Positions 11,499 to 62,599 of a stretch of DNA of 64,000 bases are shown here, in pieces. Each line of letters begins with the position of its first letter. The stretch's first letter is position 1. Below the pieces are notes generated by a model. The model did not search any database. It worked only from the letters and a program-made list of their open reading frames with translations, and was not told the DNA's origin. A program made the translations under genes and the position numbers. This stretch comes from a virus: the IMG/VR virus record IMGVR_UViG_3300010389_000013, positions 9-64,008 of that record; one strand, 5' to 3'.

Positions 11499-12098
11499 TT
11501 ACCTCCATACTGGACCAGTGAACCACCCAACTAGTGCATGTCTGACACCACGTGTGATTGGTGATACTTTATGAGACTGTCTTGAATCAAACAAAACTAG
11601 TGTACCTCGCTCTCTTGATTGTTTGGTGTTCTTTTCTGACTCACTGACGCGGAACATTAGATCTCCACCATCATAGTCATCACTATCTGATAGTTGTAGA
11701 GAGAACGATAACTTACGCACCGTCTCTTTCTTCTGTGTCACATAGTAAAGATTGCGTGACTCATCATTGTGCCAATCATAATGTCCTCCTTCAGTATACA
11801 CTGAGTATTGAAAGTGACCACCACTGATGCCAGAAATATCATAGCGAAAGTGTTGATCATTAAGGTGATTCACATAGTATGATACCATCCCAGCAACCCA
11901 CTCAGTCTCGGGAATCCAGTGAATGTCAGTCTTTCTCTGTATATCATCAGTTTCATATTTGAACTGCTGATCCTCTAGATTCCTGACGTGTGCCTCATGT
12001 GTCTCTCTGCTACCATACTGATTGACAATAGCATCACACACATCTTTAGGCAGACGTGTTTGTACTGATATGACTACGCTGTTGATGGTTACATCCAT
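11499..12098 (-). CDS. 2OG-Fe(II) oxygenase (prolyl-hydroxylase-like)
   Basis: YDWHND, RKLSFSLQLS, YDGGDL, HKVSPITRGVRHALVGW. Confidence 0.9.
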   Translation of the reverse strand: MDVTINSVVISVQTRLPKDVCDAIVNQYGSRETHEAHVRNLEDQQFKYETDDIQRKTDIHWIPETEWVAGMVSYYVNHLNDQHFRYDISGISGGHFQYSVYTEGGHYDWHNDESRNLYYVTQKKETVRKLSFSLQLSDSDDYDGGDLMFRVSESEKNTKQSRERGTLVLFDSRQSHKVSPITRGVRHALVGWFTGPVWR

Positions 12099-12379
12099 TA
12101 CATGAAATTTAGTACAGTTGGTGTCAGTGGTTTGAGAATCTGCATCGCACTATATGGTGTGGTTTTATCAATGTCAACCACAGATCCTACTTGTTTTGAG
12201 TTGATTGGAGCGTGATATTGTTTTGTCTTTGGTTTGTAAAATCCCCATACTGATCTAACTTGCTCGGAAGTGTAGCTAAATTGATAGTGGTTAACACACC
12301 AAATACGAACAACACCACGCTTGGGAGTGTCAAATTCATAGGAATATCCTTGTGGTGGGACATGGGGAAACTCTATCAT
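12098..12379 (-). CDS. conserved cyanophage hypothetical protein
   Basis: MIEFPHVPPQGYSYEF...TTPYSAM. Confidence 0.75.
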   Translation of the reverse strand: MIEFPHVPPQGYSYEFDTPKRGVVRIWCVNHYQFSYTSEQVRSVWGFYKPKTKQYHAPINSKQVGSVVDIDKTTPYSAMQILKPLTPTVLNFM

Positions 12380-47530: not shown

Positions 47531-50500
47531 CTATGCCCCTAGCACTGCCATGCGATATTGATCAACATAATTAATAGAAGATCCACCCCTACTACTTATA
47601 ACAGGAGAATCTGAATTTGATGCGACAACATTGTTTATAATGTAAATTTGCTGGACCATTGAATCCTCTTCCATGTCCTCCAGTAAACTACTATTAGATT
47701 GAAGTTGATTGACTCTATTATTTTTAGTGGGAATTAGTCCTTCATTAAAAGTTTCATTTGATCTGTTTAGTCCATCATCAACTCCCTTTTTAATTGCACC
47801 CCCAAGGGCATCAAAAAAGTTTTTAATCGTCAAATCTGGTAGTAACGGAATACCTGCACCAACTCTTCCTTCTCCAACGATTCCACGACCAACTTTCTTT
47901 GGTCCAACAATTTGCTGAGGACCACTCAATAATAATCTCTGTTCCGTTTCAATTCTAGTAGGAGCAGGACCACCACGCAACAATTCATCCGCTGCCTGTC
48001 TCATGTTCCCCTGTTCTAATGCCGCAGATAATTGGCGATATCCACCATATGCATTACCCATGCCAGCATTATATTCAAACATAATCAAAGCAGCTTTCTG
48101 TTGATCTGACATACTCTTCCAATGTTTGATATTTTTAGACAATCCCAGTTCAATTCTATCAATATCTTTTCGCAAAATTTGTTTTGCCTGACGAACAGTA
48201 ATAGGTTTGGTTCTCATGGTAACTCCACGCATACCAGCAGAACCATAACCAATTGTTGGTTGACCCACACTATCAAGATAAGGGTAAATCAATGTATCAT
48301 CGGTTATATCTCCCCATCTCTGATTGCTAACGACACTTCTTCCTCCAGGTTTGATGTAATCATTTACGCCTGGTGTTAATGAAGACAATGCCTCATCCTT
48401 AGATAATTCATGTAAAGCGATGCTCCTATGTCCACCACCGCCACCACCGCCAGATGAAGTGGGTGCTGTTCCACTTGCTAATCCATCAGCAAACCATCGC
48501 AAAACGCCATTATCTGCATTAAATCCAATTCCATTAACGTGCAAAGAAATGTGGGGGTAAATTCCATTATCTGCAGATACAGATCTACCAGAGGCACCCT
48601 GATAACCAATTAAAGTTCCTTTTGGAATTACTTGTCCCTCACTGCTACCTCTATATGGTAAATCTCTGAAGTGTCCCATAAGAACTTCATATTCTTTTCC
48701 ATCTTTTTCAAAATAATAAGAACCATAATATCCAAAACCAGATCCACTAGGACCCAATGCATCAGCAGTTCCTTGCAATCCAACAGATGGGTTTCCGTCA
48801 GTTCCCTTTGACCTGTAAATTAAATCAACTGGTGCATAAATTGGCGTTCCAATTCCACCAGGAAGATTCATGTTTAAACCCGTTTGCTCGCCATCTCTAT
48901 CTCCAGCAGGACCAATCCAAGTTCCAGATGCATAACTACCATTTCTTCCAGGATCACTTGCGGTAGTGGCAGGTCTTGAATTTCTAGCTATAATTCTCTT
49001 TGCTTCTTCTTCGGTGATTTCAGAATCCAATCCACCAAGATCATTTGTTTTATAATATGTTACGGTGTTACCGCTAGTCATTTTAACAGCAGAATTTGGT
49101 GCATTATATTCCAGATCATACTCAGGAACTACCGTGTTTAGAGGTGCTGGAGGACCGCTTGTAGGACTCTCATCATCATCTTCAGATTTCTTCTCCTCGT
49201 CTTCCGATTTGGGAAATATTTCTCTCTTAAAATCATTTTCCAATGAAGAAAGAATTGATAATTGACCCGTTTTGCCAATTTTGCTTGATATTGGCATTCT
49301 TACAATATCAAATGACAATCCAGATTTTTTCAATTCCGACTTCACTGCTTGACCCTGACCAGCACTATCAGCAAGAGATACAGCAGCAGATACTAAAGTA
49401 GAACCTACCGAATCAATTGATTGTTGATATGATTTCATCATATCTTCTCTATCTTTAGATCCTAAGATTGCTTCAGTTCCATGGAGAATTGCGGTTCCTG
49501 GTTTGGTAAGTTCAGTTCCCTGCTCATATTTTTGTTGTGGTAATGTATTAAGAGGATCAAATCCAAGATCTCTAGCAATATCAAACGCAGTAAATCCCCA
49601 CCCTAAAATAGGAATAGCAGATCCCAAACTCATAAGACCACCAACAGTATCCTTTTGAGAAAATCTATACGCTGCCTCAGCAACTGCAATTCCTGTTCCA
49701 ATGCCAGGAATAAATTTTCCTGCTTTTCCTAAACCTTTTGTTGCTGCAGTCTTTCCAGATTTTGATAGTGCTGACGCACCAGCTCTAGAAGAAAGTTCTT
49801 CAGTGACCTCCCTTCCCATCGTAGAAGTTACTTTTTTTGCCTTACCAGATGCCCTAAGATTTTCAGCAGATGATCTCAATCTTGCAACTTCTTTAGGATC
49901 CATCCCATCCGCAATCAAATCATCAAAAACTTCATCTGGAATTCCATTTTTCTTCAAAAATCTGGGAAGATCATCAACTCCCAAGATTTCATCTTCAAAT
50001 TTACCACCTTGTCTAGTAAGTTCATTAAACAAAGACTGAGCATCACTTGCTTTTCTTGTAGCTGTAACACCCTCATCAATTGAACTCATTGGTGGTCTTC
50101 CAATAAGATCATCCAAAATTTTAGCACCAGGACTTCTTCTAGCAGTTTGACCAAGAGCTTCTGCTAAAGTGTCCTTTCTCTTAGTGCTGTATCTTAATTC
50201 TTTATATCTCTTGAAAGCTCTAGCATCTAGACTCGCTCCAAATCCCCTCTGTGCAAGACCAGAAACAGCACGAAGAACACTACCAACCGTTCCTTTTTTT
50301 CCCCTAAGAGAATCAAGAAATTTTCTGAGAGCAGCACCACCCCTACCACGCAACATATCTGCTGCCACACCGAGAATGTCTCCAAGGACATCAGATTTTT
50401 TACTCTTACTATCAGTAATTGATTGTAATTTTCTGGTAGTAGATAGGTCTTTTTCCGCTTCTAGTTCATTTTCTCGCCTTTTTACTTCTGATTCATCGGC

Positions 50501-51085
50501 AATTTTTTTCTGATAATCTTGCTGTGCCGAAAAAATTTCTAAGATCTGATCAAATCTTGCACCAAGCATCTCATTTTGATCAAAAATGAGTTTTTGAGTA
50601 TCAATTAGAGTATTCTTTACTGAAGCAACATCGCTTGATAATTCTCTAACTCTAGAATCAGCAAGAGAGATCTTTTCATCAAGACCCCTCCCTAATAATT
50701 TTGATACTCCCCTTCTCGTATCAGTGTCTTTTACAGGAATAGAGTCGTCCTCCTTTAAGAGTTCTCTTTCTGCACCATCAAGATCAGATTTTGGAGTTTT
50801 TTTTAAATCATCAAATTGAGCCCTATATCTTGCTTCTTTATTTGATTTTCTATTTGTTTCTGCAGCCGATTTTCTTGGATCTAAGTTTCCAAGAGTTCTA
50901 TTGTAAAGATCACCGCCAAACTCGCTTTGAAGTGCTTTCGCGAATAAAGATCCTGGTCTTGCTTTTTCTAAATTTTCAGTCTCTCTTCTATCACTCTCAC
51001 CTTTTGCCATTCCAGCAGCATTCAACAGTTTTCCAGCAATGAAACTGGAAAAATCGCCACTGTATGTTTTAGTGATATTTGACAC
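47531..51085 (-). CDS. virion hub / tape-measure-like protein with M23-like and GH24 lysozyme-like domains, paralog A
   Basis: GTG start; coiled coils; M23-like GTPIYAP...MGHF...IGYQGASG...PH; lysozyme-like YLDSVGQPTIGYG...QQKAALIMFEYNAG. Confidence 0.8.
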   Translation of the reverse strand: MSNITKTYSGDFSSFIAGKLLNAAGMAKGESDRRETENLEKARPGSLFAKALQSEFGGDLYNRTLGNLDPRKSAAETNRKSNKEARYRAQFDDLKKTPKSDLDGAERELLKEDDSIPVKDTDTRRGVSKLLGRGLDEKISLADSRVRELSSDVASVKNTLIDTQKLIFDQNEMLGARFDQILEIFSAQQDYQKKIADESEVKRRENELEAEKDLSTTRKLQSITDSKSKKSDVLGDILGVAADMLRGRGGAALRKFLDSLRGKKGTVGSVLRAVSGLAQRGFGASLDARAFKRYKELRYSTKRKDTLAEALGQTARRSPGAKILDDLIGRPPMSSIDEGVTATRKASDAQSLFNELTRQGGKFEDEILGVDDLPRFLKKNGIPDEVFDDLIADGMDPKEVARLRSSAENLRASGKAKKVTSTMGREVTEELSSRAGASALSKSGKTAATKGLGKAGKFIPGIGTGIAVAEAAYRFSQKDTVGGLMSLGSAIPILGWGFTAFDIARDLGFDPLNTLPQQKYEQGTELTKPGTAILHGTEAILGSKDREDMMKSYQQSIDSVGSTLVSAAVSLADSAGQGQAVKSELKKSGLSFDIVRMPISSKIGKTGQLSILSSLENDFKREIFPKSEDEEKKSEDDDESPTSGPPAPLNTVVPEYDLEYNAPNSAVKMTSGNTVTYYKTNDLGGLDSEITEEEAKRIIARNSRPATTASDPGRNGSYASGTWIGPAGDRDGEQTGLNMNLPGGIGTPIYAPVDLIYRSKGTDGNPSVGLQGTADALGPSGSGFGYYGSYYFEKDGKEYEVLMGHFRDLPYRGSSEGQVIPKGTLIGYQGASGRSVSADNGIYPHISLHVNGIGFNADNGVLRWFADGLASGTAPTSSGGGGGGGHRSIALHELSKDEALSSLTPGVNDYIKPGGRSVVSNQRWGDITDDTLIYPYLDSVGQPTIGYGSAGMRGVTMRTKPITVRQAKQILRKDIDRIELGLSKNIKHWKSMSDQQKAALIMFEYNAGMGNAYGGYRQLSAALEQGNMRQAADELLRGGPAPTRIETEQRLLLSGPQQIVGPKKVGRGIVGEGRVGAGIPLLPDLTIKNFFDALGGAIKKGVDDGLNRSNETFNEGLIPTKNNRVNQLQSNSSLLEDMEEDSMVQQIYIINNVVASNSDSPVISSRGGSSINYVDQYRMAVLGA

Positions 51086-51231
51086 TATCTATTCTTTGCT
51101 GCTTCTTGTTTTTGTTTGACCTCTTCAAGGTATTGCATGAGGAAGGTCGTGTAAACTTCCCTCTCCCACGGAATCCAATTTTCAATCTCAGTCAAAGAAT
51201 ATTTATGGTACTGCATCAAAGCAAAGTTCAT
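51085..51231 (-). CDS. gp51: gp51-like hub assembly catalyst (short ORF, possibly a frameshift extension of gp26)
   Basis: NFALMQYHKYSLTEIENWIPWEREVY; not in the ORF track, read by hand. Confidence 0.8.
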   Translation of the reverse strand: MNFALMQYHKYSLTEIENWIPWEREVYTTFLMQYLEEVKQKQEAAKNR

Positions 51232-51266
51232 TTTATAGTACCCTTCCAGGTTATTCTGAAAGAGTG

Positions 51267-51980
51267 CTATGCGAAAAAACTCTGAAGACCCTCAATAGTG
51301 TAATCAGACGAAACTCCAGTATTTGGATTTACGACAGAAAACTTATGACTGAGTTTTGGTGAAGTTGCGTAGAATTGTTGAATCTTCTCAAATTGTTTTG
51401 TAGTCAGACTATCAACGAATTCACGAAATTCTTTCTTCGTTGTGGTAGAAGAATCGTAAACATCTTCACCTTGGAAAATCTGATCAATGCTATCAGCAAT
51501 AAAAGTATAAACTTGCTCAGTTTCCATATCTTTCTGCAAAAACTCGCGATCTACGAATTGCTGCATACTAGGGTAATTCATGATAATGCCAAACTCATCA
51601 TCAAACATGATTTTTTTATCATGTCCTTCTGGTTTGAAAACCTCAACTTCGTTAATATTGATATTTGCCTCAACTTGCGTTTCGTTGTCGTCAAGACAAG
51701 TAACAGTCAATGTGATCATTTCACCAATAGACGCTGCTCTGATCTTAAGAAACAAATACTCAAGATCAAAGCTAGGGAGAGATTCTACTTTAATTCTTGA
51801 AATAACGCAATTTTTGATTAGATCCTTAACCGCACTAGTAATCTGCTTTTCGTCTTGTGACTCCAATGCGAGTAAAAGAACTTTTTCCTCTTTTACCAAA
51901 AATGGACGATATCTAACAGTTTTTCCATTGGAAGGTAATTCCAACTCATAAGTTGGATACCCAGGGGTTGGCAAAGCCAT
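51267..51980 (-). CDS. gp26: baseplate hub subunit gp26
   Basis: P.YELELPSNGK.V.YRPFLVKEEK.LL...FDLEYLFLKIRA.S.GE...IEGLQSFF. Confidence 0.9.
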   Translation of the reverse strand: MALPTPGYPTYELELPSNGKTVRYRPFLVKEEKVLLLALESQDEKQITSAVKDLIKNCVISRIKVESLPSFDLEYLFLKIRAASIGEMITLTVTCLDDNETQVEANININEVEVFKPEGHDKKIMFDDEFGIIMNYPSMQQFVDREFLQKDMETEQVYTFIADSIDQIFQGEDVYDSSTTTKKEFREFVDSLTTKQFEKIQQFYATSPKLSHKFSVVNPNTGVSSDYTIEGLQSFFA

Positions 51981-52083: not shown

Positions 52084-52821
52084 TCAGGGATTTTCGGGTG
52101 TTACTGGTGCAAATGGATCATCCCTACCAATCGGAATTCCGTTCACTGTTTTTGGTTGTGTTGTGATATTTTCTGTCTGATTTGCATACGAGACTGTATG
52201 CCTTGTATAGTAGAAATTAGCGGTGCATCTGGTAACCTGAGATGATCCATAGGAGAGAGGAACCGCATCAATAGAATATGGATAACAATTCTCCAGAATG
52301 TATGCCATTGGTGCTCTACCATTAGAAGCAGTACCATTTGGTTCTGTTTTAACGATTCTAAGTTTACAAGTATAATCATCCATATACCTAAGACGATTCA
52401 CTCTCTGGGTGTTTTGTTCTTTTGCTCCAAGAGCTCCCTCTAAATTACCATTGCTGTATCCAGTGATTGGTTCGCTAAAGATATAGTCATACCAAGCAGA
52501 AAGGAATTTTAATGCAGTAAGATCTGCATCTAGCAGAAACCCCAGACTCAAATCAGTAAAAATTCTAGTATGTGGATATGAGATCGGTCCTTCTCCCAAA
52601 TATCTCCCCGTGATTTGTGCAGTGCCAGATTGAACGTTTGGTAGTTGTGCTTCATCACAAAGCATTGTCACAACATCTTTACTATCACCCGAATAAAATT
52701 TACTAACAAAATCTAAATTTTTGCCACCAAAATCAAAGATAACATCAAATCCAGTAGTCATGGACATTCCGCCCTTGACTCCCATTTTTTTCATGAACTC
52801 GTTGATCTTTGTTACTGCCAC
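52084..52821 (-). CDS. tail tube / gp54-like tube initiator (gp19 fold)
   Basis: LCDEAQLP...YP..R.F.DL.L.F..D...KF...W...I...E..P..I..V.L. Confidence 0.75.
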   Translation of the reverse strand: MAVTKINEFMKKMGVKGGMSMTTGFDVIFDFGGKNLDFVSKFYSGDSKDVVTMLCDEAQLPNVQSGTAQITGRYLGEGPISYPHTRIFTDLSLGFLLDADLTALKFLSAWYDYIFSEPITGYSNGNLEGALGAKEQNTQRVNRLRYMDDYTCKLRIVKTEPNGTASNGRAPMAYILENCYPYSIDAVPLSYGSSQVTRCTANFYYTRHTVSYANQTENITTQPKTVNGIPIGRDDPFAPVTPENP

Positions 52822-61522: not shown

Positions 61523-61942
61523 TTATGGTTCGTAATGCCTAACCATATACCGCTCCAGTGCTCTGACACCAGCAAGAGTGTCACCTGCCCTAGAAATACT
61601 GACATTACAATCATCACAAATGTATCCACGGAACTCCCCTGTGATATGGCAATGATCTAATTGTAGTGACTTGCGGTAAGGTCCACTAGGAACTTTACCA
61701 CAACAATCACAAGGAGTACCGTCTGGTGGTTTGGGATAGAGTTTTTTAAGATCTCGGATTACTTTCGCTTCTTTACGGATGCAATCTTTACAATCAATAT
61801 TGATGCGTTTCTTTATTTTACCTTCACCACGACGACTAAAGCAGTCAATTGGTTTTACAATACCACATTTCCTACAGGGTTTAGTCTTTGGTAGAAAGGA
61901 ATCGGAAAGATTTACTTCTTCTTTTTTCTTGGATCTTGCCAT
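61523..61942 (-). CDS. endonuclease VII-family (His-Me) free-standing endonuclease
   Basis: CxxC pairs plus LDHCH.TG.FRG.IC..CN. Confidence 0.85.
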   Translation of the reverse strand: MARSKKKEEVNLSDSFLPKTKPCRKCGIVKPIDCFSRRGEGKIKKRINIDCKDCIRKEAKVIRDLKKLYPKPPDGTPCDCCGKVPSGPYRKSLQLDHCHITGEFRGYICDDCNVSISRAGDTLAGVRALERYMVRHYEP

Positions 61943-62166
61943 AATTTAGGATTGGTTCTTCCCTCAGTTTGTCTCATGCTAATTACATTGCGATACTTGT
62001 CCCAATAGTAATCAAAGATTTCTACCCTCTTTCCAGCAGTAACGATGTCATAAACAACACCGTTACCATCATCAAACTCTATCAAATATGCCGTATGTGG
62101 TAGAGATCTATCTTGTGCTAATTCAGGATCACAGTTAGCATGAATGATATTTACTCCACTCGCCAT
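61912..62166 (-). CDS. conserved cyanophage hypothetical protein
   Basis: Start MASGV; CDPELAQDRSLP.TAYL...YD...IFD.Y.D. Confidence 0.75.
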   Translation of the reverse strand: MASGVNIIHANCDPELAQDRSLPHTAYLIEFDDGNGVVYDIVTAGKRVEIFDYYWDKYRNVISMRQTEGRTNPKLWQDPRKKKK

Positions 62167-62167
62167 A

Positions 62168-62599
62168 TCAAGACCTACCACCCCATTTAATTTGTGGGAA
62201 TGCCTCTTCCACACATGCCTTTGTAATCTTCCAACGTTTACCGATCTGCTTGTCCTTTGCAAGACAGAGAACTTCTGCCTCGCCAGAATGAAGACCTTCA
62301 AGCATCTGGATAAACATCATCTCACGCTTCGCTTGCTTGACGCTAGAACCACCCTTAAAGAAGTGGTGGAGCAGTCTGACCTGCTGCTCCAGTCGCGTGT
62401 GTTCTGTGCCCTCTGGTGCCTCGTTAGCGTTGTAAGGAGGGGTTCCTGGTGGGAGCAAACTAACTAGAGACTCATCAAAATTTACAATTAGAACAGACCT
62501 CAATGCCTGGGAGTTGTACTCCTGCAGCAGTGTGATCTTTTCTTTTTTAGTCTTAGCGTTGGATACTTTCTGGAGCACCTCATGCATCAAAAGTTTCAT
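62168..62599 (-). CDS. conserved cyanophage hypothetical protein
   Basis: MKLLMHEVLQKVSNAKTK...LPPG..P...REMMFIQMLEGLH..EAE. Confidence 0.85.
   Translation of the reverse strand: MKLLMHEVLQKVSNAKTKKEKITLLQEYNSQALRSVLIVNFDESLVSLLPPGTPPYNANEAPEGTEHTRLEQQVRLLHHFFKGGSSVKQAKREMMFIQMLEGLHSGEAEVLCLAKDKQIGKRWKITKACVEEAFPQIKWGGRS

Follow-up and report, generated by a model that had tools for sequence, protein, structure and literature searches.

A candidate -1 ribosomal frameshift in a viral homologue of T4 gene 26, and its relation to T4 gp51

In phage T4, gp26 and gp51 are both classed as "hub assembly chaperones" (Leiman et al., 2010, PMC3004832, Table 2). A 64,000-nucleotide (nt) stretch of DNA from a T4-like cyanophage (IMG/VR record IMGVR_UViG_3300010389_000013, positions 9 to 64,008; the whole stretch is called the window here) carries a clear homologue of gp26 (Pfam PF12322, T4_baseplate, E 1.7e-71). 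No other PF12322 match occurs in the whole 64-kb record, which has no separate full-length gene 51. What is usually annotated as gp51 is an open reading frame (ORF) of 48 codons just downstream of gp26, and the question raised by the locus is whether this ORF is a gene of its own or the end of a longer protein. We propose, with a probability that we put at about 0.88, that the gp26 gene gives both a short and a long protein, the latter through a -1 ribosomal slip on a conserved UUUUUUC. Such a slip is unreported in the literature searched, and no database record examined carries a slippage annotation at the locus.

All features of the locus are on the minus strand, and coordinates are positions in the window (Table 1). 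The 3' end of gp26 reads GGT CTT CAG AGT TTT TTC GCA TAG, in which AGT TTT TTC holds the heptamer T_TTT_TTC in the X_XXY_YYZ phase of the gp26 zero frame, three codons from the stop. The initial annotation had described this ending, with an in-phase heptamer at 51279-51273, and a -1 frame open from there through the gp51-like ORF to 51085; reading of the minus strand agrees with it in every detail. The open -1 frame is limited upstream by a TGA five codons before the heptamer. It reads FFRIALFQNNLEGYYK, then MNFALMQYHK... of the 48-codon ORF, and continues to the TAG at 51087-51085. From the heptamer to codon 16 of this frame, the window has no ATG, GTG or TTG. The predicted fusion of gp26 and the tail would be 298 amino acids (aa) long, with a mass of 34.9 kDa as compared to 27.2 kDa for gp26 alone. 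Its predicted trans-frame peptides are ...TIEGLQSFFR and IALFQNNLEGYYK, and the annotated ATG cannot give IALFQNNLEGYYK. The 48-aa ORF is probably not a stand-alone gene, because the conserved tail residues L11 and Y14 lie upstream of its ATG. An arrangement of this kind could also come about by chance in an A+T-rich genome, from a T-run near a stop and an open neighboring frame. Of 96 long open frames in the window, 3 combine an in-phase heptamer at most 15 codons from the stop with a -1 extension of at least 40 codons. The window would be unconvincing by itself, and the weight of the case lies in conservation.

Conservation was followed in 80 related IMG/VR loci (L001-L080), whose gp26 proteins are 47-81% identical. 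Subsets of distinct sequences were used for base invariance (75), for codon and start counts (76) and for folding energy (74). An in-phase TTTTTTC is found 9-12 nt before the gp26 stop in 79 of the 80 loci. The tail ORF is in the -1 frame, and open from the heptamer, in every locus where it could be located, which again makes 79; in L032, the contig ends within the tail ORF. The seven bases of the heptamer are 100% invariant in the distinct sequences, while adjacent third-codon positions vary freely, so the persistence of the site across relatives, which the initial annotation had named as a check, is evident. The codon preceding Phe-Phe is always NNT (TCT 31, AGT 26, AAT 13, GAT 4, GCT 2), even though the encoded residue varies among Ser, Asn, Asp and Ala. 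Phe-Phe itself is spelled TTT TTC in 76/76 loci, although TTT makes up 75% of the Phe codons across the same genes. The invariant T of the preceding codon and the uniform TTT TTC indicate that protein constraint is insufficient as an explanation. Only L039 departs from this, and in it a different canonical heptamer, A_AAT_TTT, lies two codons upstream and opens into the same tail. T4 gp26 serves as a natural control: Phe-Phe is kept and is spelled GAG TTC TTT, which is non-slippery. Independent DNA contigs also show six T's at the site.

The same layout of gp26 and a -1 tail reaches well beyond cyanophages. T_TTT_TTC is found in KVP40 and Vibrio phage K571, where the tail is annotated as a short gp51, and in Stenotrophomonas phage YB07. 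It is also found in Aeh1 (L101:1950-2160) and Aeromonas phage AS-yj, where the tail lies in the -1 frame, and in Acidovorax phage ACP17; the tail lacks a start codon and has no annotation in these three. The heptamer is T_TTT_TTG in Rhizobium phage RHph_N34, and T_TTT_TTT in Ochrobactrum phage OC and in Pelagibacter phage HTVC008M, where it directly precedes TAA. In S-WAM2, the tail is wholly unannotated. Against a chance origin stands a site that is invariant down to 47% protein identity, recurs in distant phage families and is accompanied by a conserved -1 product and a hairpin. On these comparative data chance is refuted, and we give it practically no weight.

Two Ackermannviridae-type phages, KWBSE43-6 (an E. 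coli phage; L097:3130-3345) and D494 (a Vibrio phage; L098:3040-3265), also have a Gp51_C-like -1 tail ORF after a PF12322 gene. Neither has an X_XXY_YYZ heptamer, the sequences being GAG ATT TTC ATT TAA and CTT TTC AAG TAA TG, respectively. D494 may re-initiate at TAATG, and KWBSE43-6 has no start ahead of the conserved residues. Three singleton proteins of 299-302 aa (P0003-P0005), in which PF12322 and Gp51_C are joined in one frame, were considered as natural fusions and rejected as likely homopolymer indel errors. They come from pilon-polished long-read assemblies that have, at the site, seven T's in a row or one base too many. The same changes merge gp26 and the tail in two ENA contigs (L099:2208-2214 and L100:2203-2214), the second of which has other split genes.

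The heptamer is accompanied by two candidate stimulators, a predicted hairpin downstream and a Shine-Dalgarno-like GAGG upstream. Among the relatives, the hairpin begins 5-8 nt past the heptamer. The mean folding energy of 40-nt segments over the 74 loci is -8.3 to -9.1 at the hairpin, which is the strongest peak of a 660-nt span (regional mean -4.2, standard deviation 1.4). Because the register of the hairpin differs between clades, two clades were tested separately. In these, 87% and 94% of the cells pair, as compared to at most 57% with slid partners, and the stems of the two clades show compensatory CG/GC and UA/AU changes. In the GAGG element, the Glu codon is GAG in 59 cases and GAA in 10, whereas GAG accounts for 30% of the Glu codons gene-wide. 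We infer from these patterns that the hairpin and GAGG serve as stimulators of the slip. Apart from the hairpin, the mean folding energy over the 74 loci dips in two further places, in 40-nt segments that start at +98 to +110 and at +218 to +236 nt from the heptamer. These correspond in the window to about 51180-51130 and 51060-51005 on the minus strand, with the same offsets in L001-L080; the second dip falls immediately beyond the stop of the tail ORF, within the opening codons of the 1184-aa gene downstream.

The -1 frameshift of E. coli dnaX makes use of A_AAA_AAG, a Shine-Dalgarno-like element upstream and a hairpin downstream. All three parts have counterparts at the present site: GAGG lies some 10 nt before a heptamer suited to tandem slippage, and a stable hairpin follows 5-8 nt after it, the stimulatory roles of GAGG and the hairpin being putative here. 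Unlike in dnaX, where the shifted ribosomes stop early and the product is shorter, the stop would be bypassed and the protein extended.

The same 298-aa fusion would also result if RNA polymerase added one U at the T6 run in some of the transcripts. The protein made after an inserted U is identical, and comparison of sequences cannot separate the two mechanisms at T6. The three fused database proteins mentioned above indicate that one base is easily gained at the site, at least in sequencing. Transcriptional slippage is known at runs of about 8-9 or more, and six T's are short for it to be productive. Moreover, the L039 site, A_AAT_TTT, is a canonical site for tandem slippage and not a homopolymer, and the hairpin is placed downstream at a spacing that suits the ribosome, whereas transcripts prone to slippage have it upstream. 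A single RNA-library contig crosses the site with six T's and no indel, which is weak evidence since contigs drop rare variants. We consider slippage by the polymerase an improbable source of the fusion.

If the tail is reached by a ribosomal slip, the -1 frame should be read as protein from the heptamer onwards. The -1 product is indeed conserved from its first residue (FFRxxxxxxxLExYYxxNFxLMQxHKYSLTEIENMxPWER). The window is one of 26 loci, among the 76 distinct ones, in which conserved residues precede the first ATG, itself at codon 14 or beyond, and several of these loci have no ATG, GTG or TTG ahead of that point. The stretch upstream of the ATG in the 26 loci shows 1154 synonymous and 1600 non-synonymous codon differences when read in the -1 frame, as compared to 126/2715 and 323/2511 in the other two frames. 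The synonymous share is thus 42% in the -1 frame as against 4% and 11%, and the third-position entropy of the -1 frame is twice that of positions 1 and 2. These codon differences confirm that the -1 frame is conserved as protein upstream of the ATG, as the initial annotation had expected it to be if the frameshift is real. As judged from the sequences, residues ahead of the first ATG cannot arise by ordinary initiation.

Several observations weigh against the slip, and some of them favor two independent genes: a small gp51 ORF read from its own ATG at 51231 or, in relatives, by termination and re-initiation just past the gp26 stop, with the T-run kept for protein reasons or as a U-rich landing site for the ribosome. 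Every GenBank record examined for the locus has the two-gene annotation. In 43 of the 76 loci, the -1 product has an ATG no later than codon 8, most commonly 2 nt past the gp26 stop, and such lineages could make the tail also, or instead, by coupled re-initiation. Phe-Phe is kept as protein even in T4 gp26, indicating that part of the T-richness is due to protein constraint. As to the stimulators, RNAalifold over all loci yielded no single consensus fold, the registers of the hairpin shift slightly between clades, and GAGG also codes for a conserved Glu-Gly. Finally, the case for the slip comes from comparison of sequences and models. Two independent genes would, nevertheless, leave the constrained residues ahead of the first ATG in 26/76 loci to be accounted for, and the start-less tails of Aeh1, AS-yj and ACP17, which annotators missed. 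Protein constraint does not explain the invariant preceding T and the spelling TTT TTC in 76/76 loci, nor does it explain the replacement by A_AAT_TTT in L039, and a landing site needs neither a fixed phase nor a hairpin downstream. The start-less lineages exclude independent initiation as the sole route to the tail, and we regard the two-gene reading as very improbable. In the 43 loci with an early ATG, independent initiation could add some free tail.

The ribosomal slip that we propose would proceed as follows. Most ribosomes on gp26 would stop at the TAG (51269-51267), and the 237-aa product of this normal termination is the short chaperone form. On U_UUU_UUC, a minority would come to a pause with tRNA-Phe at both UUU and UUC, the likely cause of the pause being the hairpin 7 nt downstream and perhaps anti-Shine-Dalgarno pairing with the upstream GAGG. 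Both tRNAs would then re-pair one base back, on UUU UUU, and decoding in the -1 frame (Arg-Ile-Ala-Leu...) would go on for 62 codons to give a 298-aa fusion of gp26 and Gp51_C. The two products would be the counterparts of the T4 hub assembly chaperones gp26 and gp51, respectively. That slipping occurs, and that a minority of ribosomes take part, is predicted from sequence.

What relates the fusion to T4 gp51 is its architecture. T4 gp26 has 208 aa and PF12322 only, whereas T4 gp51 has 249 aa, with PF12322 over residues 1-201 followed by a tail of about 48 aa. With hhalign, a profile built from the cyanophage -1 tails falls on residues 200-244 of T4 gp51 (E 1.8e-4), and phrog_634, "baseplate hub assembly catalyst", matches both the -1 tail (E 3e-25) and T4 gp51 (1.2e-23). 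Profile methods are required here, since pairwise BLAST of the tail against T4 gp51 was not significant. The initial annotation had described gp51 as a gp26-like domain with a C-terminal tail and had named alignment of the fused product to T4 gp51 as a check; the description proves right, and the tail falls where the check would place it. Another family, phrog_150 (282 positions), is collinear with the predicted fusion, its positions 5-232 being covered by gp26 of the window and 231-277 by the -1 tail, and the join accordingly lies at the slippery site. Fused relatives come with a precomputed match to the Pfam family Gp51_C (PF28602). The number of PF12322 genes is two in T4, as against one in each of four complete cyanophage genomes, namely S-PM2, S-WAM2 and two from IMG/VR. 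Based on the shared domain architecture, the profile matches and the gene counts, the predicted fusion corresponds in architecture to T4 gp51, and the protein made without a shift to T4 gp26. Both systems have a short and, in the window by prediction, a long form of family PF12322, the long one with a tail homologous to the gp51 C-terminus (Gp51_C, phrog_634). In T4, however, the two forms are products of separate, divergently transcribed paralogous genes without a slippery site, and gp51 has diverged strongly, scoring no more than 33 bits with any other member, T4 gp26 among them. One gene and recoding would here stand in for both T4 genes. That one locus could yield both types of protein, as the initial annotation suggested, is supported by the site, the -1 frame and the homology to gp51.

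Paired chaperones made by -1 frameshifting, such as gpG/gpGT of λ and E/E+E' of P2, are familiar from phage tails, and the frameshift in tail assembly chaperone genes is reportedly conserved. In pairs of this type, the short domain is expected to bind the tape measure and the extension the tube protein. The likeness to G/GT drawn in the initial annotation was examined at the level of fold, using an AlphaFold2 model of a fusion-length relative (predicted local distance difference test score 89) and 48,161 PDB chains. The top three matches, all to residues 1-90, were the HK97 tail assembly chaperone 2ob9 (Z 7.4), the prophage protein YqbN 3klu (7.2) and 3fgx (7.1), and the next match had a Z of 4.7. 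When the N-terminal 100 residues were modeled separately, Foldseek again placed 2ob9 (probability 0.94) and 3fgx (0.92) first, in the same order, with E 0.05-0.12. These values lie below the significance marks of the tools (Z < 8; Foldseek E 0.05), which also counts against the reading, and their consistency across two methods and two models is suggestive of an N-terminal domain with the tail-assembly-chaperone fold. Foldseek with the full-length model gave nothing useful, a sequence profile against PDB found no relative with a solved structure, and no similarity to known tail assembly chaperones was found at the sequence level. A predicted complex of the Gp51_C tail with the upstream tube-family protein scored 0.00, and this speaks neither for nor against binding. 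The GenBank record of Acinetobacter phage Berthold calls gp51 a "tape measure protein assembly chaperone".

Position, frameshift logic and the suggested N-terminal fold, which strengthens the likeness, make gp26 and the fusion a probable pair of the λ G/GT type. In both systems, two overlapping frames lie downstream of a tube-family gene and just upstream of a large tail-length or hub gene, here a putative one, and the first frame has a canonical heptamer close to its 3' end. Common to both, as predicted here from sequence, are a short form in abundance and a rare form extended at the C-terminus. The differences are that the protein here is about twice as long (237 aa), with an extra alpha/beta domain past the chaperone-like ~90 residues, that the site is 3 codons from the stop, and that the downstream gene is a putative tape measure, by position and size.

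Table 1. The gp26 locus and its putative recoding signals, in window coordinates
Feature	Positions	Strand	Remarks
Upstream tail-tube-family gene	52084..52821	minus	245 aa; PF23849 Phage_TTP_2, E 6e-55; phrog_45 "tail tube"
gp26 gene, zero frame	51267..51980	minus	237 aa, 27.2 kDa; TAG stop 51269-51267; PF12322
GAGGG, Shine-Dalgarno-like element	51289..51293	minus	ends 9 nt before the heptamer
Slippery heptamer T_TTT_TTC (AGT TTT TTC)	51273..51279	minus	X_XXY_YYZ phase of the gp26 zero frame
Predicted downstream hairpin	51235..51270	minus	minimum free energy -15.5 kcal/mol; upper stem of 10 base pairs, 51265-51256 with 51249-51240, beginning 7 nt past the heptamer; lower stem of 4 base pairs, 51270-51267 with 51238-51235
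-1 frame extension (Gp51_C-like tail)	51085..51279	minus	62 residues after Phe236; TAG stop 51087-51085
"gp51" ORF, usual annotation	51085..51231	minus	48 aa from ATG 51231
Downstream 1184-aa gene	47531..51085	minus	GTG start; phage lysozyme (E 7e-16) and a weak M23 peptidase match

The stop of the tail ORF and the GTG start of the 1184-aa gene share one base. Of the earlier statement that the tail ORF overlaps a gene resembling a tape measure, the overlap stands; the gene may, by position and size, be a tape measure or hub gene, and no similarity to T4 gp29 was detected when it was searched for. The homologous region in HTVC008M is annotated as "putative tail tape measure".

In-phase heptamers are also seen at two other places in the window, both on the minus strand. 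The first, A_AAA_AAG, stands 12 nt ahead of the stop of a 129-aa ORF (61912-62301) that belongs to no known family; the -1 frame there is an overlapping Endonuclease VII ORF (61523-61942) with its own ATG. The second, A_AAT_TTC, stands 9 nt ahead of the stop of a 93-aa ORF (12098-12379); here the -1 frame corresponds to the next gene, a 2OG-Fe(II) oxygenase (11499-12098), also with its own ATG, and the arrangement is probably an ordinary gene overlap.

The frameshift bears on the history of gene 51. In cyanophages and vibriophages, gp51 was noted to lack the first ~200 residues and to have "20% of the length", without explanation, and Aeh1 was reported to have no gp51 (Sullivan et al., 2010, PMC3037559). 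Aeh1 does carry T_TTT_TTC and a start-less Gp51_C-like ORF in the -1 frame, and a frameshift would explain both points. A full-length gene 51 is found only in T-even and pseudo-T-even phages of Escherichia, Klebsiella, Acinetobacter, some Aeromonas and Cronobacter. In pairwise scores, which are unrooted, T4 gp26 reaches up to 62 bits with single-gene forms and 33 bits with T4 gp51. Being closer to the single-gene forms than to gp51, T4 gp26 suggests that the duplication is old and that gp51 has diverged. We lean, by a small measure, to the view that gp26 and gp51 are the G/GT-type chaperones of the whole T4 superfamily. A single gene with a -1 frameshift would then be widespread and probably ancestral, and the T-even/pseudo-T-even lineage would have swapped recoding for duplication, the long form becoming fixed in frame as gene 51.

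If the frameshift is real, the "gp51" annotation would have to be corrected in hundreds of T4-like phage genomes, including those of cyanophages, which rank among the most abundant marine viruses. It would explain the apparent gene 51 stub in many T4-like phages. It would also link gp26 and gp51, the poorly understood hub-assembly proteins of T4, to the well-studied mechanism of the G/GT chaperones, providing a handle on the role of gp51, a question that dates from the 1970s. The near-universal tail-chaperone frameshift would be extended to the one large group of long-tailed phages that has been thought to do without it. Should the G/GT reading hold across the superfamily, it would provide a natural case in which frameshifting and gene duplication are interchangeable, and would show in concrete terms how gp51 acts "catalytically" when the hub is assembled.

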